This document shows positions 4,579 to 41,742 of a stretch of 64,000 nt of DNA, in pieces. Numbering within the stretch: position 1 is the first letter of the stretch; each line of letters begins with the position of its first letter. The translations under genes and the position numbers were made by a program. This DNA comes from an uncultured Lachnospiraceae bacterium (GTDB lineage: Bacteria; Bacillota; Clostridia; Lachnospirales; Lachnospiraceae), in contig CAZAQH010000002.1 of the NCBI GenBank assembly GCA_964487395.1, forward strand, positions 864 to 64,863, given 5' to 3'. The notes under the pieces were generated by a model. The model did no database searches and had not been told where the DNA came from. It saw only the letters and a program-made list of their open reading frames with translations.

Positions 4579-4609
4579 TAAAAAAAGGGACAGACCTAAG
4601 TCTGTCCCT
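4579..4609 (-). terminator. intrinsic terminator after the cell-wall hydrolase gene
   Basis: On the minus strand, AGGGACAGA-loop-UCUGUCCCU is followed by U7. It begins 5 nt after the stop at 4615. Confidence 0.8.
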
Positions 4610-4614
4610 GTATT

Positions 4615-14306: not shown

Positions 14307-15494
14307 TTAGATGTATTTTTTTAAGTCATTTACTTTATCAAGTGCTTCCCAAGGAAGATTTAAATCATTACGTCCAAAATGACCATATGCTGCAGTCTGT
14401 TTGTAAATAGGACGACGAAGATTTAACATTTTGATGATTCCTGCTGGACGAAGATCAAAGTTCTCTCTGATGATATCTACTAATTTATTATCATCTACTT
14501 TGCCTGTTCCAAAGGTATCAACCATAACGGAAGTTGGCTGAGCAACACCAATTGCATAAGAAAGCTGAACCTCACATTTATCTGCAAGTCCTGCTGCAAC
14601 AATGTTCTTTGCAACATAACGAGCTGCATAAGCTGCTGAACGGTCTACCTTTGTGCAATCCTTACCGGAGAAAGCGCCACCGCCGTGACGAGCCATTCCA
14701 CCATAAGTATCTACAATAATCTTACGTCCTGTAAGTCCGGAATCGCCGTTTGGTCCGCCGATTACAAAACGTCCTGTTGGATTAATGAAATATTTTGTTC
14801 TCTCATCAACAAGTTCCTGTGGAATAACAAGATCAATAACGTATTTGCGAACATCTTTATGAATCTGTTCCTGTGAAACTTCTTCTGCATGCTGAGAAGA
14901 AATTACTACGGCATTAATATGAACCGGTTTACCATTTTCATCATATTCTACAGTAACCTGTGATTTTCCATCTGGTCTTAAATAAGCAAGAGTACCGTTT
15001 TTACGAACCTCTGTTAATTTCTTGGTCAATTTATGAGCAAGTGCGATTGGATAAGGCATGTATTCTTCTGTCTCATTGCTTGCATAACCAAACATCATAC
15101 CCTGATCGCCTGCACCAATTGCTTCAATCTGTGAGTCTGACATATTAGCTTCTTTTGCTTCTAATGCTTTATCAACTCCCATTGCGATATCAGCTGACTG
15201 TTTGTCAAGAGCAACCATAACACCACAAGTATTAGCATCAAAACCTTTTGCAGAATCATCATATCCGATTTCTCTGATGGTATCACGTACAATACTTTGT
15301 ACATCAATCTGTGCTTTTGTTGTAATTTCTCCCATTACCAGAACTAATCCGGTTGTAATAGCTGTTTCACATGCTACACGGCTGTTTGGGTCCTGTGCCA
15401 TAATAGCGTCTAAGACTGCATCTGAGATATTATCACAGATTTTGTCAGGATGTCCTTCTGTTACTGATTCCGAGGTAAATAATCTTTTTTCCAT
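14307..15494 (-). CDS. metK: S-adenosylmethionine synthetase
   Basis: Motifs [26 protein letters not shown] and GGGAFSGKD. Start set to the ATG at 15494 (MEKRLF...), preceded by an AAAGGAGAA RBS; the longer track ORF start at 15536 is unlikely. Confidence 0.93.
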
Positions 15495-15561
15495 CTCTTG
15501 TTCTCCTTTAATAAATTGATTTACGGGTAATTTCACAGCATACTCTGCTGTTTTCTAGAAT

Positions 15562-15612: not shown

Positions 15613-15714
15613 TCCTCTTATTGTTCGACTTTTTCGCTCAGGTTGGCACCTTCCAATTATGGGGTTGCCGTGGCTTCACAGGTCCTATGTACCTCCACCA
15701 CTCTGAATAAGAGA
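15613..15714 (-). promoter_or_regulatory. SAM-I (S-box) riboswitch aptamer in the metK leader
   Basis: The minus strand reads CUCUUAUUCAGAGUGGUGGAGGUACAUAGGACCUGUGAAGCCACGGCAACCCCAUAAUUGGAAGGUGCCAACCUGAGCGAAAAAGUCGAACAAUAAGAG. The P1 pairing (CUCUUAUU / AAUAAGAG) and the conserved GGUGGAGG, GAAGCC.CGGCAACC and GGUGCCAA blocks match the S-box consensus as I recall it. Confidence 0.9.
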
Positions 15715-16961: not shown

Positions 16962-16993
16962 TTAGAGCAATAAAAAAGTGGCTTTTCATAAGC
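16962..16993. terminator. bidirectional intrinsic terminator between the HD-GYP gene and murA
   Basis: A5, AGTGGCTT, a 5-nt loop, AAGCCACT, then T6. It sits between the convergent stops at 16954 and 17008. Confidence 0.8.
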
Positions 16994-17007
16994 CACTTTT
17001 TTATTTA

Positions 17008-21266: not shown

Positions 21267-21538
21267 TGTCCCCTCCGTTCACCTTACTTTTCTTTTGTTT
21301 GTTTGTTTTTCGCACTTTTTTGCGTATTTTACTTTGTGCACTATGCACAATTATTTTTATTTTCTTCTTTTTCTTTTGTGTGTATTAACCATATGTTTAC
21401 ATCTTGTTCATATTTTATTCACATTTCATTGTTATACTTTAAATATCGAAACGGAAAAAAATTTTTGATAAATTTTTTCATAATAGCCCAGGCGCTGCGA
21501 AGTGTCTGGGCACTCCTCATTTTATGGGCTAATTATTT

Positions 21539-22192
21539 CTAAAGTATATCCTCTTCACGTCCTGCAAGCTTCTGAATTTCTTCATTTAGTGAAAGCATTC
21601 TAGCATCTAAATCTGATACCATTCGTGCACACTCTACTAATTCAGTTTTAATATGTTCTGGAGCATTTCCCTCAAATTTATAATGAATTTTATGTTCCAA
21701 GCTTGCCCAAAAGTCCATCGCTACTGTTCGTATTTGAATCTCAACTTTTGCACTTGCTGTTCGATCTGACAAAAAAATAGGAACTGAAACCAGCATATGA
21801 TAACTTTTGTATCCACTTGGCTTTGGGTTCTTAATATAGTCCTTAATGGATATAATCTTAATATCGCTCTGGTTGCTAATCATTTCTGCTATTCTGTAGA
21901 TATCAGAAGTAAAAGAACAAATAACACGAATACCCGCAATATCGTTCACATATTTGACCATATTTTCAATGGTAGACTCATAACCGTTCTTTTTTAATTT
22001 TTTGACAATACTCTCTGATGTTTTGATACGTGATTTAATATGTTCAATCGGATTGTATCTATGTACATGTTGAAATTCGTCATTGAGTATCTCCAGCTTT
22101 GTCCCTATTTCCTTTAAAGCTGAATTATAAATTAAAATTACTTCTTTCCAACTGTCCACTTGATTATTTCCAGTATATTCTGTACTATCCAT
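21539..22192 (-). CDS. relQ: small alarmone synthetase (GTP pyrophosphokinase, RelQ/YjbM type)
   Basis: 217 aa with RelA_SpoT synthetase blocks GIRVICSF, SGYKSYHM and EIQIRTVAMDFWASLEH. Confidence 0.85.
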   Translation of the reverse strand: MDSTEYTGNNQVDSWKEVILIYNSALKEIGTKLEILNDEFQHVHRYNPIEHIKSRIKTSESIVKKLKKNGYESTIENMVKYVNDIAGIRVICSFTSDIYRIAEMISNQSDIKIISIKDYIKNPKPSGYKSYHMLVSVPIFLSDRTASAKVEIQIRTVAMDFWASLEHKIHYKFEGNAPEHIKTELVECARMVSDLDARMLSLNEEIQKLAGREEDIL

Positions 22193-22401
22193 TTCTCATC
22201 CTGCCTTACTTAAAATATAATCATTATTACAGAGACAGTATACCATATTATTCTTGTTTTTTGTGCATTTTACGTTATTTTAATTTTTCCAATTATTTTT
22301 TCATCATTTTTATTTTGAAATGCTTGTTATACTTTTTTTGTCTGTTATAATATTAGCAAATCAAATCATAAAAAGCAGTATTAGCGGAGGCCATCTACAG
22401 C

Positions 22402-22665
22402 ATGAGAATCTGGGCAAAAGAATTTAAGGATAACCATCTTTTAAAAGATACAGTTATTGAAAATAATAAACAGGACACTCGAACGCATAAAGTTTTTCAG
22501 GCACTTGAGGATACATGCCGGGAATTTGATTTGTGCAAACCACTTTGGTTGGATAAGAACATTTCCGAATTTCAAAATCATGCCAAAACACGATTTCATC
22601 AGGATAATTTCATAGAACCGATTCCATTTGATTATTTGGAATTTCATGTTATAGAAGAGGATTAA
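22402..22665 (+). CDS. hypothetical protein (87 aa)
   Basis: Clean ORF with a GCGGAGG RBS region and a TGTTATAAT extended -10 about 50 nt upstream. No family recognised. Confidence 0.45.
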   Translation: MRIWAKEFKDNHLLKDTVIENNKQDTRTHKVFQALEDTCREFDLCKPLWLDKNISEFQNHAKTRFHQDNFIEPIPFDYLEFHVIEED

Positions 22666-22695
22666 TTCTTCTTCTATTTTTTTGTTTAAAATTTA

Positions 22696-22724
22696 TTGAC
22701 ACTGGAAATAATGTGTTGTAGTAT
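22696..22724 (+). promoter_or_regulatory. putative sigma-A promoter for the hemolysin-III family gene
   Basis: TTGACA (22696-22701), a 17-nt spacer, then TAGTAT (22719-22724). Confidence 0.5.
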
Positions 22725-22801
22725 TGCAATATGGTTTATGTAGTTATTATTACTACTTGTTGTGATTTGATAGGTTAAATATGTGAAATGAGGTGAATTA
22801 T

Positions 22802-23452
22802 ATGCAGATTACAATTAGAGAACCCGGAAGTGCCATTACACATTTTGTTGCCATGATGATGGCATTACTTGCTTCTGTACCTTTATTAGTGAAGGCGGAA
22901 CTGGCATCCGGACGATTATGTTTTTTTGCTATGTGCATTTTTATGTGTAGCATGGTGATGTTATATGGTGCCAGTGCAACTTATCATTCATTGACTGTTT
23001 CGGGTAAAGTTCTAAAGGTATTTCGAAAGCTTGATCATATGATGATTTTTGTATTGATAGCCGGTTCGTATACGCCTATCTGTCTTATTGTATTAGGTGG
23101 GAAAAGTGGATACGTTCTATTAGCAATTATTTGGTCAATAGCGATATTTGGAATGACCATCAAGGCTTTATGGATTACGTGTCCAAAGTGGTTTTCATCT
23201 ATTCTATATATTGCAATGGGCTGGGTATGTGTCGGTGTCTTTGGGCAGCTTGTATCTTCGCTTCCGGTCGCCGCCTTTATCTGGCTATTAGCCGGAGGTA
23301 TCATTTACACAATCGGTGGCATCATTTACGCCCTGAAGCTTCCCATCTTCAACAGTAAGCATCATGGCTTTGGCTCTCACGAAATTTTCCATTTATTTGT
23401 CATGGCCGGCAGTATCTGTCACTTCATCTTTATGTATTGTTATGTTGCCTAG
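22802..23452 (+). CDS. hemolysin III / PAQR family membrane protein
   Basis: Seven TM segments with the conserved His motifs (ASATYHS, LDHMMIF, SHEIFHLFV). Start set to the ATG at 22802, which follows a GAGGTGA RBS. Confidence 0.85.
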   Translation: MQITIREPGSAITHFVAMMMALLASVPLLVKAELASGRLCFFAMCIFMCSMVMLYGASATYHSLTVSGKVLKVFRKLDHMMIFVLIAGSYTPICLIVLGGKSGYVLLAIIWSIAIFGMTIKALWITCPKWFSSILYIAMGWVCVGVFGQLVSSLPVAAFIWLLAGGIIYTIGGIIYALKLPIFNSKHHGFGSHEIFHLFVMAGSICHFIFMYCYVA

Positions 23453-23463
23453 TGCCCCAGTGT

Positions 23464-23601
23464 CCCAGCGGGTTTTGTATTTGTACTTCGGGTACGCTCT
23501 CGCTTAATTTCACACGTAGCAGCACATAAGGCTGCATAGAACGCAGCCTAAGTGCTGACGTGTTCACAAAACCCTCAGTACAAATAGGAAAACCGCTGGG
23601 G
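23464..23601 (+). repeat. structured hairpin repeat, copy A (about 138 nt), 12 nt after the hlyIII-family stop
   Basis: The long imperfect palindrome CCCAGCGGGTTTTGTATTTGTAC...GTACAAATAGGAAAACCGCTGGGG encloses a conserved core. The reverse complement of this core aligns with copy B. Confidence 0.8.
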
Positions 23602-23701
23602 ATAACGAGAAAAAAACAAAGGATAGTGACTAAGAAAGATAGGCTGGGGATGAGAGAAAGAAAGAAAAAGAAAAAACAATGTTTTTCAAATATTTTTCCA
23701 C

Positions 23702-23735
23702 AAAAAAAGAATCAGTTGCACTGATTCTTTTTTTG
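23702..23735. terminator. bidirectional intrinsic terminator between the convergent hlyIII-family and galE genes
   Basis: A7, AAGAATCAG, the loop TTGCA, CTGATTCTT, then T7. Confidence 0.8.
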
Positions 23736-23771
23736 TCTATATGAGGCTTTCTTTTAGTGTGTGAGGGGCTG

Positions 23772-23895
23772 GGGTGCTGTAATGGTACTGAGGGTTGTAT
23801 GAATGCGTCAGTACTTAGACTGCGTCTTTTGCAGTCTTATGTACTGCTACGCATGAATCCAAGCGAAAGCGTACCCGAATACCATTACAGCACCC
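23772..23895 (-). repeat. structured hairpin repeat, copy B (about 124 nt), inverted relative to A, 13 nt after the galE stop
   Basis: A perfect 16-bp outer stem (GGGTGCTGTAATGGTA / TACCATTACAGCACCC) encloses the same core as copy A, with compensated substitutions. Confidence 0.8.
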
Positions 23896-23907
23896 ACCCC
23901 CGCCCGA

Positions 23908-24921
23908 CTAGTTAAAGCCGTTAGGGTTGTTTTTCTGCCAGCGCCAGGAATCTTCACACATTTCTTTGATTCCATATTTTGCTTCCCAGCCAAGTTCGCG
24001 TTTGGCTTTGGAGGCATCGGAATAGCAGGTGGCGATGTCACCCGCACGTCTTTCCTTAATTACATAAGGAATCTTAACACCAGTTGCTTCTTCAAAGTTT
24101 TTCACAATATCAAGAACACTGTAGCCGTGGCCGGTTCCTAAGTTGTATATACTGAGTCCTGTTTTTTCTTCCAGCTTTTTAACAGCCTTTACATGTCCTG
24201 CTGCCAAATCGACTACATGAATATAATCGCGTACTCCGGTTCCATCCGGTGTGTCATAGTCATTGCCAAATACGCCAAGTTCTTTTAACTTTCCTACTGC
24301 AACCTGTGTCACATAAGGCATAAGGTTATTCGGAATTCCGTTTGGATTTTCGCCAATGGTGCCACTCTTATGTGCTCCGATTGGATTAAAATAGCGAAGT
24401 AAAACAACATTCCACTCCGGGTCTGCTGTATGCAAATCCGTTAAAATCTGCTCTAACATGGATTTCGTCCAGCCATAAGGATTGGTACATGTTCCTTTTG
24501 GACATTCTTCTGTAATCGGAATCATAGCCGGATCGCCATAAACGGTTGCAGAAGAAGAAAAAATAATGCTTTTACAGTTGTAGTTTCTCATTACTTCTAA
24601 TAAATTCAAAGTCCCCGAAATATTATTTTCATAATATTCCAACGGTTTTTTCACAGATTCACCTACTGCTTTTAAGCCGGCAAAATGAATACATCCGTCT
24701 ATTTTTTCATTGGTAAAAATCTCTTCCAATGCTTTTTTATCTCGAATATCGGCTTCGTAAAATGGAACTTTTTTTCCTGTAATCTTTTCGACTCTTATCA
24801 GCGCTTCTTTGCTTGAATTACATAAGTTGTCCATTACTACTACATCATAACCAGCATTCTGCAATTCAATTACAGTATGTGTTCCGATAAATCCTGCTCC
24901 GCCTGTTACTAAAATAGCCAT
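23908..24921 (-). CDS. galE: UDP-glucose 4-epimerase
   Basis: 337 aa with VTGGAGFIG and the YxxxK motif (PYGWTKSM); colinear with GalE throughout. Confidence 0.92.
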   Translation of the reverse strand: MAILVTGGAGFIGTHTVIELQNAGYDVVVMDNLCNSSKEALIRVEKITGKKVPFYEADIRDKKALEEIFTNEKIDGCIHFAGLKAVGESVKKPLEYYENNISGTLNLLEVMRNYNCKSIIFSSSATVYGDPAMIPITEECPKGTCTNPYGWTKSMLEQILTDLHTADPEWNVVLLRYFNPIGAHKSGTIGENPNGIPNNLMPYVTQVAVGKLKELGVFGNDYDTPDGTGVRDYIHVVDLAAGHVKAVKKLEEKTGLSIYNLGTGHGYSVLDIVKNFEEATGVKIPYVIKERRAGDIATCYSDASKAKRELGWEAKYGIKEMCEDSWRWQKNNPNGFN

Positions 24922-24933
24922 GTTTTCACCTTC

Positions 24934-25848
24934 TTACCAAAGTTTCTCCGGATATTCTCCAGCATCTTTTAATTTTTGTATGGATTCTACTACATAAGGC
25001 TTATCTTCTTTATAAGTAACTCCAAACCATTGGTCTGTAGAGGTTAATACCTTAACCGTTGCTTTTTTGCTTTTTAATAAAACATCAACCTCAGTTGGAA
25101 TCAGACATTCTGCCTTCATAGGGTTCAATGCTACTTTTTTGTCAAAGAATAAATCCAGTGCTTTTCCAAATTCAGAAATAATGCTTTTTCCAAATCCCCA
25201 CATATTCATGGAAACTGGTGAAGTAACCTCGATTGGGTGGAATGTCTCTCCATCATCTTCGGAATAAGCTGCTCCATTTTCTGTTTTCACAAGCATCTTC
25301 TGTTCTACGATATCCTGTAAAAATCCATTGTCATCTGTTTTGCAGCAACCCCTTGTAACAGAGCCTTTTTCAGTCAATGTTTTGCCCAGTTCATAAGAGA
25401 CCATTGCATAATTACCAGTATCTTCTTTCTGGGAAGATAAGAACTGATACATTAACTGATATCCGCTTTTTCCATAATAATCATCAGAATTGATAACCAT
25501 AAATGGACCATCAATCACATCTTTACAGCAATACAGCGCATGTGTGGTTCCCCATGGCTTTACTCTGCCTTCCGGAATCGTAAAGGTTTCCGGAACATTT
25601 GAAAGTTCCTGAAAAACATATTCTACTTCCATATGCTTACTGATTGGATTGCCGACACATTCTCTGAAATCCTGTTCCATTTCTTTTTTTATAATAAAAA
25701 TTACTTTTTCAAATCCTGCCTGTTTTGCATCATAGATAGAAAAATCTATAATCTTATGACCCTGATTGTCCACTGGGTCCATCTGTTTAAGTCCACCGTA
25801 GCGGCTTCCCATTCCTGCTGCCAAAATAACCAAAACTGGTTTTGCCAT
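24934..25848 (-). CDS. sugar-phosphate nucleotidyltransferase (specificity unknown)
   Basis: 304 aa with an N-terminal LAAGMGSRYGG nucleotide-binding loop. It lies 12 nt upstream of galE, suggesting a sugar-nucleotide operon. Confidence 0.7.
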   Translation of the reverse strand: MAKPVLVILAAGMGSRYGGLKQMDPVDNQGHKIIDFSIYDAKQAGFEKVIFIIKKEMEQDFRECVGNPISKHMEVEYVFQELSNVPETFTIPEGRVKPWGTTHALYCCKDVIDGPFMVINSDDYYGKSGYQLMYQFLSSQKEDTGNYAMVSYELGKTLTEKGSVTRGCCKTDDNGFLQDIVEQKMLVKTENGAAYSEDDGETFHPIEVTSPVSMNMWGFGKSIISEFGKALDLFFDKKVALNPMKAECLIPTEVDVLLKSKKATVKVLTSTDQWFGVTYKEDKPYVVESIQKLKDAGEYPEKLW

Positions 25849-30373: not shown

Positions 30374-30408
30374 AAAAAGGGAAATCGTTTTTACGATTTC
30401 CCTTTTTT
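30374..30408. terminator. bidirectional intrinsic terminator after copZ
   Basis: A5, GGGAAATCG, a 6-nt loop, CGATTTCCC, then T6. Confidence 0.8.
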
Positions 30409-34383: not shown

Positions 34384-37300
34384 TTACAAAGATGAATGAA
34401 GAAGTCTGCTGATTTCCTGTAAATCGTTAATGCAGACTTTTTCTTTTTTTCTGTCGTAAGTAAGCAAACCGTTTATCTCATCTTCAACGTCGCTTAACTG
34501 CGTATAAACGCAACCGCATAATCCCTTAGGGATAGCCGGAATAATCATTTCCTTGTACATACTTATCATTTTCTTAGTCACATCTTTTTCACTTTCACAA
34601 TTTCCATAACCATAATGAGTGTATTTACTGTAAAAATGGCCAGGTATTGCAAAGGAATATCCGCCGCATTCAGACACAAGGGTTGGTTTGTGATGTGATA
34701 CCGGAACCTTCTTGTTATTATAATAAATATGGAGACTTTTTACTTCTGTCTTTTTTCCAAAAAACCATCCTGATGTTGTGTCAATAATTCTGGTGGTGTC
34801 TTTGGATTTTATGGTCTCATACATTGCATCACTGTCAAACTGTCCCCAGCCTTCATTAAAAATTGTGTAGTAAACAATACATGGGTGGTTATAAAGTGTT
34901 TCAACTGTTGCAATGCTGTGTTTTACAAAAATTCTTTTTCTTTTCTTATTACCGTTAAAGCGATGGTCGTTACGATGAAATTTACCAAGGTAAGGCATTG
35001 CGGTGTCTCTAAAAAAGGAATAATGCCCATTATTGACCATATCCTGCATTACAAGCATTCCCAGTCTGTCACATGCATAGTAGAATGCCTCCGGTTCAAT
35101 TTTAATATGCTTCCTGAGTGTATTAAATCCCATTTTCTTCATTGCAAGAATATCTTCTTCATACGACTTCTCACATGCCGGTGTATAGATTCCATCACTG
35201 AAATAACCCTGATCCAAAACTCCATGAAGAAAAATTGGTTCACCATTTAAGCAGATACGTTGTTGTCCTTTTATATCTTTAATCTCAATTGTACGTAATG
35301 CGAAGTAGGAATTGACCTTATCCTCTCCTGCTGATATCTGAATCGAATACAAATGTGGGGAATCCGGCGTCCACAATTCAGGCTTGTATTCTTTACCAAG
35401 CTTTTTCATTTCCTCTACCAAATCAATGCGGAATTCTTCATCATAACTCATTGCTGTTATGGTATCGCCCTCTATCGGAATTGTCACATAAACAGGAACT
35501 GGAGATGTCCTATTAACTTTGAGTGTAATCCCTGTTTTATATGGTGTTATTTTAATATTCTTAATATAATCTTCCGGCACACTTTCAAGCCACACCGACT
35601 GCCAGATACCGCTTATCGGTGTGTACCACATTCCACCGCGTTTCCTGCATTGTTTTCCGTATGGATAATTCTCTGAAAGTAAATCAATAACCTTAACTTC
35701 CAGAATGTTTTCCATATTGTCATTTTTTAAATAATCAGTTATGTCAACTTCGAAAGGGAGATAGCCACCTTCATGTTTTGTTAATAATGTATCATTCAAA
35801 AAAATCTCGGCAATCTGATCCACTGCTCCAAAATGAAGCAACACTCTGCCTTTTATAAAATCCTCTGGAATGGTAAAACTCTTTATGTAATGCAGATGGA
35901 AGCCTGTAAATTTATGATATCCCGATAAAATAGACTGTGGTGCAAACGGAACTCTTATTGTATTCCGGTTCAACTGCCATTCACCATTTAATGATATGTA
36001 GGAATTACGCTTCATCTGCGGTCTCGGATAAGCCTTCCACGGCTGCTCACCGTTATTCCATTTATCGAGACATTTTTCTCCAAGGTCTGTCATTAAATCA
36101 TGATGTCCATGTCGAATCATTTCAAAAATTCCACCAAGGACAAATAAAAGGACAATGGCTGCCACAAATGCAGCTGCATATATATTATGATTAGGAATAA
36201 AGGATGTGGTTCCGTCACTATTTTGAATCGTCTTTGCATTTTTTAGAACTGCTGCCCCAATTGCCGGTCCGACAATACCCGGAATAAATACCTGTCCAAA
36301 TATACGAAGGCCCTGAAAAAGCCCAGCTTTTTCCCTTGGAATGTTGTCACGAATCATTGCTCCAAAAATAGCCATGCCTGTTAAATAACCTGTCATCATA
36401 AAAAGGGAACCAGCAAAAACCGAAATGGTATTGGTAAAAAAGAATAAAAAGAAATATCCGACCATCAACATGATTATCGTCAGAAGCACTGACATTCGAA
36501 ATCCCACCATGTCATATAATTTCCCGTAAAAAGCGGTAATCACAGATGCCAGAATAATAGCAGGTGCCATAATAAGTACATAATTGTTAAGTCCTAAGCT
36601 CACCTCATAATAAAGAATCAGATATGGCATAAAAATCTGAATCGAAATTCCAAATACTGCAAAGGCAAGCACGACCATATAAAGCAGTTTATGATTTTTA
36701 AAGACGCTTGGACGAAAACTGTAAATAAGATTCTTAAAGTAGCTTTTATTTTCATCCGATGCCACTGCATGATCTTCCATTAGAAAAATACATAGAATAC
36801 CGATTAAAATTACTGAAATACCTATAATCAGAAAAATGGTGATCCAGCTTTTCTGTAACTCCAGATTAAAAGCCATAAAACCACCAAAGACAACTAATAT
36901 AGCAACTAAAGGCATCATGGAATTGATGCCTTCTATTTTTCCTCTGTTCGTGTCATCTCCACTATCCGTAAGCCATGCATTGAAGCAGGCATCATTAGCG
37001 GATGACCCAAAGAAAGTCATGACACAGTCTAACAGTATAACAAGTGAAATACCTAAAGATGCAGCCTCAATTACGGAGCCTGTCAATTTTTCAAGTATAT
37101 CCATTCGAATCAATGCAAAGGACAGAATCGAGATACCCCAGACGATATATCCCCCGCAAACAAATATTTTTCTTTTTCCAATTTTATCAGAAAGCGCTCC
37201 TATAAGCAGAGTAGTAAGGGTAGCCGCTACTGCACTTGCTCCAACCATAAGTGATATATCTGCTGCACTTGCATGAAACATTTTATAGAGAAAAACATTA

Positions 37301-37392
37301 AAATACATATTCTCCACTACCCATGCAATCTGTCCAATCAAGCTTAAAATCACCATGGTAATCCAGAATTTCTTTCCCAATTTTGTCTGCAT
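34384..37392 (-). CDS. fusion protein: 12-TM MFS/GPH-like transporter (N-terminal, about nt 36076-37392) plus glycoside hydrolase family 2 enzyme (C-terminal, about nt 34387-36075)
   Basis: Single 1002-aa ORF. I count 12 hydrophobic helices in aa 1-435. Then come a GH2 sugar-binding domain (LNGEWQL...FGAVDQIAEIFLNDTLLTKHEGGYLPFEVDITDYL) and a TIM barrel with candidate acid/base (IFNEGWG) and nucleophile (LVSECGGYS) glutamates. Confidence 0.8.
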   Translation of the reverse strand: MQTKLGKKFWITMVILSLIGQIAWVVENMYFNVFLYKMFHASAADISLMVGASAVAATLTTLLIGALSDKIGKRKIFVCGGYIVWGISILSFALIRMDILEKLTGSVIEAASLGISLVILLDCVMTFFGSSANDACFNAWLTDSGDDTNRGKIEGINSMMPLVAILVVFGGFMAFNLELQKSWITIFLIIGISVILIGILCIFLMEDHAVASDENKSYFKNLIYSFRPSVFKNHKLLYMVVLAFAVFGISIQIFMPYLILYYEVSLGLNNYVLIMAPAIILASVITAFYGKLYDMVGFRMSVLLTIIMLMVGYFFLFFFTNTISVFAGSLFMMTGYLTGMAIFGAMIRDNIPREKAGLFQGLRIFGQVFIPGIVGPAIGAAVLKNAKTIQNSDGTTSFIPNHNIYAAAFVAAIVLLFVLGGIFEMIRHGHHDLMTDLGEKCLDKWNNGEQPWKAYPRPQMKRNSYISLNGEWQLNRNTIRVPFAPQSILSGYHKFTGFHLHYIKSFTIPEDFIKGRVLLHFGAVDQIAEIFLNDTLLTKHEGGYLPFEVDITDYLKNDNMENILEVKVIDLLSENYPYGKQCRKRGGMWYTPISGIWQSVWLESVPEDYIKNIKITPYKTGITLKVNRTSPVPVYVTIPIEGDTITAMSYDEEFRIDLVEEMKKLGKEYKPELWTPDSPHLYSIQISAGEDKVNSYFALRTIEIKDIKGQQRICLNGEPIFLHGVLDQGYFSDGIYTPACEKSYEEDILAMKKMGFNTLRKHIKIEPEAFYYACDRLGMLVMQDMVNNGHYSFFRDTAMPYLGKFHRNDHRFNGNKKRKRIFVKHSIATVETLYNHPCIVYYTIFNEGWGQFDSDAMYETIKSKDTTRIIDTTSGWFFGKKTEVKSLHIYYNNKKVPVSHHKPTLVSECGGYSFAIPGHFYSKYTHYGYGNCESEKDVTKKMISMYKEMIIPAIPKGLCGCVYTQLSDVEDEINGLLTYDRKKEKVCINDLQEISRLLHSSL

Positions 37393-39126: not shown

Positions 39127-41742
39127 TCAATATAGGAACCGCTCTCTGAATTCCTCCAACGTTTTTCTGATTTCTACTTCAAGTTCTCTTGATGATATCA
39201 ATTGGCAGCCCTGTCCGCGGATGATAATCTGTTCCAGTCCATCTGATGTTGCCACTGTAATATCATAATTTTTTGCATTTTCATGTGTAAAACGCTCAAT
39301 GTACTGGTCTGCTGTTTCTGCCTCTTTTGTATAAACAACATGAATATTCTGGTATGTTAATATTTCTGTTTTATGTCCTTGTATACGGTATGCATCAAAT
39401 ACTAAAATCAAATTACAACCTTTAATCGATTGGTAATTACTCAGTATGTCCATAAGTTGTCCGCGGGCACCATCAATATTAATGTCTGCCAATTCCTTTA
39501 ATTCTTTCCATGCAAATATAACATTATAGCCATCTACCAGCAGGTACTTATCCTTTTTGGGGCTTGGCTGGTAAACGCGTGTTGTAGAATCCGCTGTTCT
39601 GTTTTTTTCCGCTGCCGTTACTTTTCTTTTTGCTGAAATTCCTTTATGGGAAATAGGCTGACTTTTCTTATTGGCATAAAACGTTCTCTGTAAAATACTA
39701 TCTATTTCCTCTAAATCAATTGTCTGCTGTAAAGACGACATATCACGCATGCGTTCTCTTTTTTGTTTTTCCCTTATTGCCTGCTCCTCTAATGTCAGTT
39801 CTGAAGACTCATCATTTTCACTGCTGTTTTCTATTATACATGGCAAATGAGCATAATCCATTACCTGATCCCAGGGTACAATAACGCCTGCACCATGCGT
39901 ACAGAACACAGAGCCTGTCGGATTATCCAAATCCGCTTCCGGATCATAAGTAACACCTTCTAAAATTTCCTCTTCATTATGACAAGGTTCATAGCCTGCC
40001 ATAGAACAAGATAATTTTCCATGTCCCTTTGAATAGGATAGCACTTCTGTAATATATCCACGCATCGTAACAACCGGTGCTTTTCCTGTTAATGTCGTAA
40101 ACCCATCCGTGACGGATTCGATTGCAGAAGTCCCATACATTTTATCAATGTCATTCATGGCTCTTCCCACCATATTATCTGGTATCTCCAGGCGATATGC
40201 ATAAACCGGCTCTAATAATCTGACATATGCCTGCATTAGGCCCTGTCTGATTGCACGGTAAGTAGCCTGTCTAAAATCTCCGCCTTCTGTATGCTTCGTA
40301 TGTGCACGCCCGTTTATAAGAGTAATACGCATATCCGTAATCGGACTGCCTGTCAGTACTCCCATATGTTCTTTTTCTTTTAAATGTGTAAGAATCAGTC
40401 TCTGCCAATTTCTATCCAAAACATCCTCACTGCACTGTGTATCAAACTGCAACCCACTTCCAGGTTCACCCGGTTCCATTTTTAAATGTACCTCAGCATA
40501 ATGGCGAAGCGGTTCAAAATGTCCTACTCCCTCTACTGTATTACATATCGTTTCTTTATATAGAATATTACCCTCTGCAAAAGATATTTTTACACCAAAA
40601 CGTTCTAGAACCATGCGTTTGATGATTTCCGTCTGTACCTCACCCATAAGTTTAATATGAATTTCTTTTTCTGATTCTTTGTATGCAATCTGTAATTCCG
40701 GTATTTCCTCTTCTAATTGACGAAGCTTCGGTAAAAGCATCAAAACATCCATATCGTCTAAAATTTCAATCTTATAAGACAGGACGGGTTCTAAAATCGG
40801 ATTACCTGACTCCGGTTCCATGCCAAGTCCCTGTCCCGGATGTGTTTTTATCAGTCCTGTCAGTGCACAGACCATTCCTGCCATAACTTCCTGTACAATT
40901 TCAAATTTTTCTCCAGAGTATACACGTATCTGATTGACTTTTTCTTCGCCAATAATATCCTTTACTTTAAGCTTCCCACCAGTTATTTTTAAATAGGTCA
41001 GGCGGTTTCCCTGTTCATCCCTTGCAATTTTAAATACTTTGGCACCAAACTCATCAGAATACCGGATTACCTTACTATATCTGTCTATTCCCGTCAAAAA
41101 TTTCTCAACACCCGATACCTTTAAAGCAGATCCAAAATAACAAGGGAACAATTTACGTTTCCAAATCAATTCTTGTATCTCTTCGTCCGAAATCTTTCCA
41201 CTTTTCAAGAAATGGTCTAACACTTGTTCGTCACACATAGCAATATTTTCAAAAAGTACCGTTTCTTCCTGTTCCGTAAAATCTATACAGGAGCCCGCTA
41301 ACTGCTGATTGATTTTTTTTAATATTAATGTCTTATCTGTATCCGGCTGATCCATTTTATTAATAAAAAGAAATACCGGAATACGATATTTCTTTAATAA
41401 ATCCCATAAAGTTCTGGTATGACTCTGCACGCCATCCGTGGCACTTATTACCAAAATAGCAGCATCAAGCACCTGCAGAGTTCGTTCCATCTCCGCTGAA
41501 AAGTCAATATGACCCGGTGTATCTAATAATGTAATCCGTGTATTTGAGAAATTGAACATAGCCTGCTTGGAAAAAATGGTAATCCCACGTTCTCTTTCCA
41601 TTTCATTGTGGTCTAAAAAAGCATCTTTTGCATCAACTCTGCCCAATTTGCGAATTTCACCGCTGACATACAGCATTGCTTCTGATAATGTAGTTTTTCC
41701 GGCATCCACGCTTGCAAGTATACCTGCCACTAATTGATTCAT
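39127..41742 (-). CDS. fusion protein: Tet(M)/EF-G-like translational GTPase (aa 1 to about 640) plus YacP/Rae1-like NYN ribonuclease domain (aa 732-871, nt 39130-39549)
   Basis: Single 871-aa ORF. G1 is ASVDAGKTT, G3 is DTPGH and G4 is NKMD, and the protein is colinear with Tet(M) through domains II-V. After a charged linker, the C-terminus reads KYLLVDGYNVIFAW...LVFDAY...KEAETADQYIE...VATSDGLEQ, matching B. subtilis YacP as I recall it. Confidence 0.8.
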   Translation of the reverse strand: MNQLVAGILASVDAGKTTLSEAMLYVSGEIRKLGRVDAKDAFLDHNEMERERGITIFSKQAMFNFSNTRITLLDTPGHIDFSAEMERTLQVLDAAILVISATDGVQSHTRTLWDLLKKYRIPVFLFINKMDQPDTDKTLILKKINQQLAGSCIDFTEQEETVLFENIAMCDEQVLDHFLKSGKISDEEIQELIWKRKLFPCYFGSALKVSGVEKFLTGIDRYSKVIRYSDEFGAKVFKIARDEQGNRLTYLKITGGKLKVKDIIGEEKVNQIRVYSGEKFEIVQEVMAGMVCALTGLIKTHPGQGLGMEPESGNPILEPVLSYKIEILDDMDVLMLLPKLRQLEEEIPELQIAYKESEKEIHIKLMGEVQTEIIKRMVLERFGVKISFAEGNILYKETICNTVEGVGHFEPLRHYAEVHLKMEPGEPGSGLQFDTQCSEDVLDRNWQRLILTHLKEKEHMGVLTGSPITDMRITLINGRAHTKHTEGGDFRQATYRAIRQGLMQAYVRLLEPVYAYRLEIPDNMVGRAMNDIDKMYGTSAIESVTDGFTTLTGKAPVVTMRGYITEVLSYSKGHGKLSCSMAGYEPCHNEEEILEGVTYDPEADLDNPTGSVFCTHGAGVIVPWDQVMDYAHLPCIIENSSENDESSELTLEEQAIREKQKRERMRDMSSLQQTIDLEEIDSILQRTFYANKKSQPISHKGISAKRKVTAAEKNRTADSTTRVYQPSPKKDKYLLVDGYNVIFAWKELKELADINIDGARGQLMDILSNYQSIKGCNLILVFDAYRIQGHKTEILTYQNIHVVYTKEAETADQYIERFTHENAKNYDITVATSDGLEQIIIRGQGCQLISSRELEVEIRKTLEEFRERFLY

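Follow-up and report, generated by a model that had tools for sequence, protein, structure and literature searches.

Structured repeats of several kinds have been described from bacteria. The Correia elements of Neisseria, the enterobacterial ERIC/RU and the bcr1 group of Bacillus cereus often lie at the 3' ends of genes, with which they are co-transcribed, and as long RNA hairpins they alter the processing and stability of messenger RNA (mRNA) (PMC10969869). Repetitive extragenic palindromic (REP) sequences measure 20–40 nt, carry a conserved GTAG head, occur in hundreds of copies and have the gene of a REP-associated tyrosine transposase (RAYT) alongside; the replicative unit of the REPIN is an inverted doublet. 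In attC sites, structure is conserved over sequence, extrahelical bases are conserved, the site comes immediately behind a stop codon, and it is the strand antisense to the gene that folds; the boxes R''/L''-L'/R' (RYYYAAC...GTTRRRY) stand at the ends, and the sites lie in a cassette array beside intI. Here we describe two inverted hairpins, A and B, that lie between the convergent genes hlyIII and galE in a 64,000-nt stretch of DNA (hereafter, the window) from an uncultured Lachnospiraceae bacterium (contig CAZAQH010000002.1 of assembly GCA_964487395.1). [quoted passage not shown]

The block between hlyIII and galE

The locus was originally picked out from sequence alone. That original prediction saw two inverted copies of a hairpin element in which base changes are compensated, and this is borne out: a repeat search gives inverted arms at 23487–23586 and 23780–23879 (100 nt, 81% complementary), and in a joint structure of 45 pairs, 31 are identical between A and B, 8 are changed on both sides, and none is changed on one side only or broken. 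Four compensated inner-helix pairs (CG>TA, AT>GC, CG>TA and GC>AT, A vs. B) had been listed beforehand, and on the joint structure the list is exactly right. Equally accurate was the description of outer arms that are self-complementary and mutually unrelated (the repeat search gives A an arm of 30 nt, 83% complementary, and B a perfect one of 16 bp), of GCTGGGG motifs and a purine-rich spacer, and of the position of both copies between a stop codon and a shared terminator. Folding energies range from -61 to -69 kcal/mol (z = -7.5 to -9.0) over all four combinations of strand and copy, and none of 200 shuffles was as stable. The window holds no copies beyond A and B.

What had been taken for two independent, gene-associated elements of 3' untranslated regions (UTRs) turn out to be the two ends of one block, which is present or absent as a unit. 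Filled alleles (metagenome loci, designated by L-numbers: L019–L028 and L062–L064) match the window at 99.5–100% identity, and their two stop codons are the full 455 nt apart. Empty alleles are of two types: L061, with 18 nt between the stops, is identical to the window at 96% of nucleotides towards hlyIII and at 99% towards galE, and L065–L067, with 8 nt between the stops, are 83–90% identical on the hlyIII side and 98–100% on the galE side. Both types lack A, the purine-rich spacer, the terminator and B all together, and a covariance model of the family gives no match on them. The missing block (~439 nt) extends from the first base of hairpin A (23464–66) to the end of the extended stem of B (23902–05): the left junction falls at 23464–66, similarity of the empty alleles to the window resumes at 23903–05, and a CCC triplet stands at each junction (23464–66 and 23903–05). 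More distant relatives (hlyIII 82–88% identical) have 47–60 nt between the stops, made up of one bidirectional terminator and no element. Because the whole block is missing together, it is the composite that comes and goes as a unit. On these alignments parsimony favours one gain in the window's lineage, two separate lineages being empty; that the block was acquired as a single unit is the step of our proposal that we would defend most confidently, the alternative being that it was excised twice. Loss by excision or by structure-mediated deletion, instead of gain, is possible.

In the window the composite block (23464–23905, as delimited by filled and empty alleles of close relatives) is flanked on the left by the gene of a hlyIII-family membrane protein (22802–23452, forward strand; stop codon TAG at 23450–23452), recognised from its open reading frame (ORF), the Pfam HlyIII domain and homologues, and on the right by galE (UDP-glucose 4-epimerase family; 23908–24921, reverse strand; stop at 23908–23910). 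A and B are 11–12 nt away from the respective stops; the C-terminus of the HlyIII-family protein is identical to that of relatives whose C-termini were compared. Module A, a full hairpin with copy-specific arms and a core, occupies 23464–23601 (reverse strand, taking the strand with the GNRA loop described below; 104 bits with covariance model R1). It is followed by the purine-rich spacer (23602–23699, 98 nt, forward strand), which is absent from all relatives, and by a bidirectional intrinsic terminator (23700–23736) consisting of an A-run, the stem GAATCAGT/ACTGATTC – a perfect 17-bp inverted repeat – and a T-run. This, the sole terminator between the convergent genes, belongs to the variable block. 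The hairpin of module B in full, perfect 16-bp outer arm included, lies at 23772–23895 (forward strand; 113.5 bits with R1); a weaker extension of its stem pairs 23766–76 with 23895–905.

Some smaller features of the locus deserve mention. The motif GCTGGGG also opens the extended stem of B (23768–74). A perfect 9-bp direct repeat, GCTGGGGAT, is found at the end of hairpin A (23595–23603) and again 49 nt deeper in the spacer (23644–23652). The palindrome of B seems to be weakly extended outward, with GGCTTTCTTTTAGT (23746–23759) pairing with ACTAGTTAAAGCC (23907–23919); the latter holds the galE stop and last three codons, and the pairing could reflect an inverted copy of host sequence beyond B, or chance. 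Other perfect bidirectional terminators of A-run, stem and T-run are present in the window at 4581–4614, 16969–17005 and 30374–30407, and such terminators are the usual separator of convergent or tandem genes in this genome. An origin of A and B by a large inverted duplication was rejected, the flanks sharing nothing but the terminator itself; short direct repeats (TAGTG around A; TAGTG/TAGTT around B) were judged non-significant, their boundaries not being independently defined. In L065–L067 the comparison with 21300–25300 of the window is a mosaic whose identity switches exactly at the intergenic junction, which suggests, from the alignment, that the galE side has recently recombined or been transferred between lineages. 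At L057 (27–1442; hlyIII 86% identical) a DDE_Tnp_1/DUF772 transposase is found upstream of hlyIII, galE is no longer adjacent, the locus being rearranged, and there is no copy of the element.

The family and its core

The core of the element (~80 nt) folds, as a single strand, into a three-way junction that unites a long hairpin with a GC-GNRA-GC mini-hairpin. P1, the outer stem, often contains a tandem G·A internal loop; P2 is the long hairpin, whose two conserved strands read CGUCAGUACUUAG and CUUAGUACUG-YU-ACG; it contains a U·U mismatch and a YU bulge, and its apical stem varies. The mini-hairpin, GCGNRAGC, is P3. In A, P2 (ACACGUCAGCAC...GUGCUG-CU-ACGUGU, with the variable apical stem, U·U mismatch and YU bulge) is at 23512–23563 and P3 (GC-GAGA-GC) at 23496–23503, both on the reverse strand; in B, P2 (AUGCGUCAGUAC...GUACUG-CU-ACGCAU) is at 23803–23854 and P3 (GC-GAAA-GC; motif as defined in PMC13037366) at 23863–23870, both on the forward strand. 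P3 had originally been described as a bulged AAGCGARAGCGT segment: the conserved piece is real, but it is the mini-hairpin of a three-way junction. The sequence GC-G[A/C/G][A/G]A-GC is found in 17 of 17 modules examined, copies not picked by the search pattern included. A variant module in L033 (276–421) and L041 (6699–6844) has an extra hairpin of ~22 nt (GGGGTCTGTCTTTTAGACCC) at the P2 apex; the apical region would therefore tolerate insertions. A hammerhead or other ribozyme was rejected (CUGA runs straight into a stem, there is no CUGANGA...GAAA core and no Rfam match), as was a K-turn, the internal loop being a symmetric tandem G·A that has no 3-nt bulge and is not kept in all lineages.

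The core is not equivalent on its two strands. The GNRA loop and the tandem G·A are present on a single strand only – forward for B, reverse for A – and both times this strand is antisense to the adjacent gene. Of 18 copies, 16 are more stable when folded on this strand (mean -4.8 kcal/mol; Wilcoxon p = 0.0013). G·U pairs number 50 on it, compared with 31 on the opposite strand. Across the informative cases ~12 copies are antisense to the nearest stop codon vs. 3–4 exceptions, a bias that is suggestive only. A rule by which the 3' end faces the convergent gene was discarded, being uninformative within convergent intergenic regions.

A metagenome scan with a pattern composed of the P3 motif and the 3' strand of P2 gave 27 loci. 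True relatives account for ~20 of these and lie in low-GC contigs whose sources are digesters, wastewater, gut and compost; none of the ~20 comes from the window's species. Two paralogues, C and D, came from the alignment of metagenome contigs to the region and match the ~90-nt cores only: C shares with A just its core (23489–23578, reverse strand; 11 mismatches and 1 gap), and D shares with B just its core (23790–23878, forward strand; 11 mismatches). Since C and D track the depth of the host contig in 4 independent runs, the genome holds at least 4 copies. Both are solo copies whose flanks are new self-complementary arms; the arm of D has G·T wobbles that work on the GNRA strand only. Identity is 87% between A and C, 88% between B and D, and 81% between A and B.

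A structure-blind MAFFT alignment of 15 copies yields 38 pairs with RNAalifold, 25 of which show double-sided compensation. Paired cells amount to 90.8%, against 68.6% in shuffles and 30–42% in controls with slid partners, and none of 500 shuffles reached the covariation score of 0.587 (vs. 0.174). Covariance model R1 found copies outside the search pattern, and the GNRA loops are kept: in copies not selected by the pattern they read GGGA, GAGA, GGGA, GAAA and GGAA, and the supposedly invariant helix of such copies shows added compensations (e.g., CGUCAG/CUG to CGUUGG/CCA). Conservation of the core, with covariation, extends to hosts with only 46% identity between orthologous proteins. Selection on secondary structure, proposed at the outset from A and B, is supported by these 25 compensated pairs over 15 family members; the extra copies, in which uncompensated changes would have spoken against the proposal, keep their helices paired.

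No Rfam family matches the element. A scan of 23300–24050, covering both copies, with Rfam 15 (cmscan, E≤10) gave sub-threshold matches only, all of them on the terminator, and over the whole window the SAM riboswitch alone reached gathering scores. No plasmid or phage match was obtained with blastn; a two-block pattern run against genome contigs gave 7 matches, all from high-GC unrelated taxa and to the seed only, which are chance matches, the source species seeming to be absent or masked among those contigs, and two viral scans gave 11 chance matches and then 0. The family would add to Rfam a well-supported three-way-junction motif with 25 covarying pairs.

Modules of about 125–260 nt occur solo or as inverted pairs. 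In 4 of 4 pairs (the window, L037, L052 and L029/L039) the order is (-)(+), with flanking genes that are convergent, divergent or tandem; the same geometry in four pairs would arise by chance with a probability of about (1/4)^4. The spacers of the other pairs are unrelated, one being just 33 nt, and contain no terminator. Most copies are situated 0–90 nt past a stop codon; others are 5' of genes or between genes of an operon.

Several signs point to mobility. The loci L031, L033, L040, L041 and L055 have in common a unit of ~215 nt, with 13-bp terminal inverted repeats (GTTACWATTCRGC...GCYRAATWGTAAC) and unrelated flanks, and perfect 8-bp direct repeats are found at the boundaries of the unit (TGAATCAT in L040, CTTTAATT in L041). 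At copy C the match for a target duplication is 7/8; the window block has only CCC at its junctions, and most other copies have none. An L040-type copy separates operon genes that overlap in L039, and contigs break at family copies. Judged from this distribution – multiple copies at unrelated loci, one lineage with terminal inverted repeats and 8-bp target duplications – the family is likely to be mobile or unstable DNA. Co-occurrence with Y1 transposases (IS200/IS605, RAYT) had been suggested as something to look for: none was found among the window's called genes, the scanned ORFs or the genes near 20 loci. The left flank of L031 (1–196) is the exact reverse complement of its right flank (360–560), up to the contig end; most likely the palindrome made the assembly fold back on itself, and the symmetry is an artefact.

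If the arms had diverged gradually together with the core, related copies should have related arms. This is not what is seen. The copy-specific arms are almost perfectly paired over 16–45 bp, and for all pairs of copies with a core identity ≤0.83 they are no more alike than background (0.55 ± 0.06); arms in common are confined to very recent copies. The apical stems of A to D are nearly identical – C has the GACUGC/GCAGUC state of B, and D is one wobble off – and the arms wholly unrelated: the arms would thus have been acquired, or re-created, copy by copy. In many copies the layout is two-tiered (an inverted repeat of 9–17 bp outermost, unpaired spacers of ~15–20 nt, an inner stem of 20–27 bp, then the core), and the sequences of the tiers are unrelated between lineages. 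The remark in the original prediction that a conserved core with variable arms departs from the classical MITE holds for this genome (A to D). That the arms are former terminator stems, or that the core landed in existing palindromic shells, was rejected: the window has no coreless long palindromes except ordinary terminators. Shell-only copies of the L040 shell were absent from the metagenome loci examined, and the empty sites of relatives have no palindrome. We know of no precedent for a conserved asymmetric core with unrelated, perfectly paired arms, and no known transposition mechanism predicts the spread of such a core.

Interpretation and alternative explanations

Taken together, these data are what would be expected if the core is kept for the propagation of the element itself, an unknown trans-acting machinery recognising the folded single strand, either as single-stranded DNA (ssDNA) or as the element's own transcript. 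Strand-specific motifs that are off the host-mRNA strand, together with copies in 5' regions and between operon genes, argue for propagation, and not for a 3'-UTR function, as the reason for conservation. Against the mobile-repeat interpretation, no transposase or other recurrent protein is found near the element, at 20 loci or in the window, and target duplications are limited to the L040 lineage plus the 7/8 match at copy C. With no termini conserved across lineages, a classical transposase that recognises terminal inverted repeats cannot account for most copies. The direction of the block's insertion or deletion is not proven, the empty alleles having no terminator although outgroups have one. 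Finally, compensated changes in long DNA palindromes may come from template-switch correction without selection; such correction would not keep asymmetric features, however.

A contending explanation, which we regard as possible and less probable than a mobile unit, is that two solo insertions took place on either side of an ancestral bidirectional terminator, and that the empty alleles arose by later deletion of the whole inverted-repeat structure (slipped mispairing across the giant hairpin, or excision at the outer ends). It accommodates the identities given above, by which A and B each resemble a solo copy (C and D, respectively) more than they resemble each other. It would also accommodate the terminator, which stands between the genes in the distant relatives L056, L058 and L059 and in neither type of empty allele, and so was lost at some point, as well as the 3-nt CCC microhomology at the deletion junctions and the differing footprints of the empty alleles (8 vs. 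18 nt). However, separate insertions need at least 4 events, compared with 2–3 for the gain of a unit; two independent deletions must share the right end at 23903–05; all 4 pairs have the same inverted geometry; and the 98-nt purine-rich spacer, too, is absent from every relative.

It is unlikely, in our judgement, that the host has selected A and B as cis-acting RNA elements in the 3' UTRs of hlyIII and galE (stabilisers, sites of processing or sites of protein binding) that fold within the mRNA, with mobility incidental. They do lie between stop codon and terminator, an order shown for A, B and L041b only (two terminator detectors were too strict or unreliable), and most family copies closely follow a stop codon. 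The elements are transcribed, as the original prediction had required: metatranscriptome contigs cover 23436–23647 (A) and 23747–24000 (B and the end of galE), so that one RNA contig joins the galE coding end and B, and in X26 the contig over A is the only full-length contig of this organism within 20 kb. These contigs are unstranded and of low depth, which weighs on the mobile-repeat interpretation as well. The L040-type element is seen in ~20 metatranscriptomes, likewise in unstranded contigs; in X31 depth is 48–66 over the upstream gene, 155–230 over the element (a sum over multiple copies) and 9–23 just past the hairpin, an RNA abundance that drops across the copy. ERIC and Correia elements provide precedents (PMC10969869). 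Location and transcript cover thus favour the structured 3'-UTR RNA as first proposed; the strand complementary to the mRNAs is the one with the GNRA loop, tandem G·A and surplus of G·U pairs, and these weaken the case for a stabiliser selected in the mRNA. Moreover, close relatives manage without it, other copies are 5' of genes or between operon genes, and the geometry of pairs is independent of gene orientation.

For the host, the mobile block would nonetheless have consequences: it would supply the sole terminator at the locus and give both 3' UTRs hairpins of great stability. On neither strand is A or B followed by a T-run, and only 23700–23736 qualifies as an intrinsic terminator, with a U-tract directly behind a GC-rich hairpin. 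The hairpins are probably exonuclease barriers or RNase III substrates, which would probably explain why RNA fragments pile up over them; of all the steps proposed, this is the one that we hold least firmly. A 48-nt stretch of L040 (9061–9108) reaches a depth of 100–150 in four metatranscriptomes, in contigs of other organisms that differ from L040 to either side of it; the stretch probably belongs to an abundant RNA that is conserved.

It is very unlikely that the GNRA strand of each module encodes a small RNA, with transcription running from the block centre outward and antisense to the hlyIII and galE 3' ends. The strand asymmetry would fit, as would the inner ends of the RNA contigs (23647 and 23747), which flank the block centre with neither contig reaching the terminator; there is a weak TTGCAC-16-TATATG at 23716–23743, upstream of B, and the L037 pair is in a divergent promoter region with both modules sense. 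Yet a promoter scan of the spacer found none, no terminator follows any copy on the GNRA strand, the spacers of other pairs are unrelated and in one case only 33 nt long, and the RNA contigs have the limits already noted.

We consider it similarly improbable that the core is an ssDNA signal, either a priming or recombination site like sso, ssi or attC, or the hairpin of an HUH (Y1) enzyme. The function of such a signal would be orientation-specific. Extrahelical and mismatched bases are conserved here, as they are in attC sites and IS608 hairpins, and in attC it is the bottom strand that is folded, antisense to the adjacent gene as the folded strand is here. P3 conforms to the motif GCGNNAGC or C-GNRA-G, and GCGNNAGC is exactly the motif named 'mini-hairpin DNA' that the ssDNA phage G4 carries where its primase starts, and close to ssiA (PMC13037366); with this match, the fold could have a role not just in RNA but in ssDNA too. 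Against this, the P3 loop has a purine as its third base without exception, in line with the RNA-type GNRA rule, which is narrower than GCGNNAGC; the modules scanned have no RSB within 5 mismatches and no CS-6, bar one chance TAGCG, and there is no plasmid or phage match. Nor were R'/R'' boxes, an integrase, or a Y1 or RAYT gene found, and 8-bp target duplications are unexpected for HUH transposition.

The mobile-repeat interpretation can be taken further, into territory that we think decidedly unlikely. The family could be a new kind of bacterial mobile element, recognised and moved not via conserved termini but via the conserved three-way junction into which ~80 nt of a single DNA or RNA strand fold, with each copy acquiring or re-creating its own perfectly paired arms (e.g., by fold-back synthesis or template switching at insertion), inverted pairs mobilising what lies between them (here, a bidirectional terminator, brought in between two abutting convergent genes), and GCGNRAGC as a possible priming or recognition signal. 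If A and B are indeed modules of a mobile repeat, Clostridia of gut, digesters and wastewater carry an unrecognised family of structured repeats, and strains differ at the 3' ends of genes – here in the sole terminator between two convergent housekeeping genes and in stable hairpins in both 3' UTRs; metagenome contigs would then break at copies, as seen, with a fold-back artefact in one.

The rest of the window is ordinary housekeeping DNA. The SAM riboswitch (RF00162, 75.3 bits; 15615–15713, reverse strand) is upstream of an S-adenosylmethionine synthetase gene (14307–15536), an ordinary arrangement. An 871-aa ORF (39127–41742, reverse strand) is an unusual combination of an EF-G/Tet(M)-like translational GTPase (GTP_EFTU, EFG_IV, EFG_C) with a C-terminal YacP-like NYN nuclease. 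A 1002-aa ORF (34384–37392, reverse strand) has an N-terminal MFS transporter and glycosyl hydrolase family 2 domains, and may be a real fusion or the product of a missed stop or frameshift.

Comparison with described systems

How, then, does the family compare with known repeats? Like the classical MITE, it is short, non-coding and multi-copy (modules of 125–260 nt, block of ~439 nt, at least 4 copies in the genome and ~20 in metagenomes). Terminal inverted repeats are conserved in the L040/L031/L033 lineage, and neither between lineages nor among A to D; a related autonomous insertion sequence with the same ends is absent beside the 20 loci and from the window, and we know of no parent insertion sequence. 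Correia, ERIC/RU and bcr1 elements are likewise non-coding, 100–250 nt long, largely palindromic, multi-copy and intergenic, and the lineage with terminal inverted repeats and an 8-bp target duplication has its parallel there. In contrast to them, the conserved part here is an asymmetric central three-way junction, and termini and arms are unconserved between lineages.

With REPs and the REPIN–RAYT system the family shares imperfect palindromes that fold as single strands in extragenic 3' regions, and the inverted doublet as replicative unit is paralleled by the (-)(+) pairs, 4 of 4. Unlike REPs, the modules are 125–250 nt long and few in number, have no GTAG head, and come with no Y1 gene in the window or near 20 loci. 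Palindrome-associated transposable elements (PATEs) derived from IS200/IS605, whose subterminal hairpins are in direct orientation and which have neither terminal inverted repeats nor a target duplication, differ also, since the pairs here are inverted and the L040 lineage has terminal inverted repeats with an 8-bp duplication.

The block also resembles those mobile repeats that bring terminator-like structure into intergenic regions (PMC10969869), in that it carries the sole terminator between abutting genes. Here, however, the terminator is a separate central hairpin, A and B have no U-tract, and the spacers of other pairs have no terminator. Resemblance to ssoA, ssi and mini-hairpin sites lies in an imperfect hairpin of ~130–160 nt that would act on one strand only, and in the presence of GCGNNAGC and an ...AGCGT motif; ssoA is defined by RSB (TTATGCCGAGAAAATTT) and CS-6 (TAGCGT) on a rolling-circle plasmid (PMC5703833, PMC4598088), whereas the copies here are chromosomal, multi-copy and without similarity to plasmids. 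As for attC, its ends (R''/R') are conserved and its centre varies, the reverse of the family here, and the neighbours at this locus are housekeeping genes, with no cassette array or IntI. Although it fails defining features of each family tested, on this comparison the element would function most like the structured, co-transcribed MITEs (Correia, ERIC, bcr1) and the REPIN doublets.

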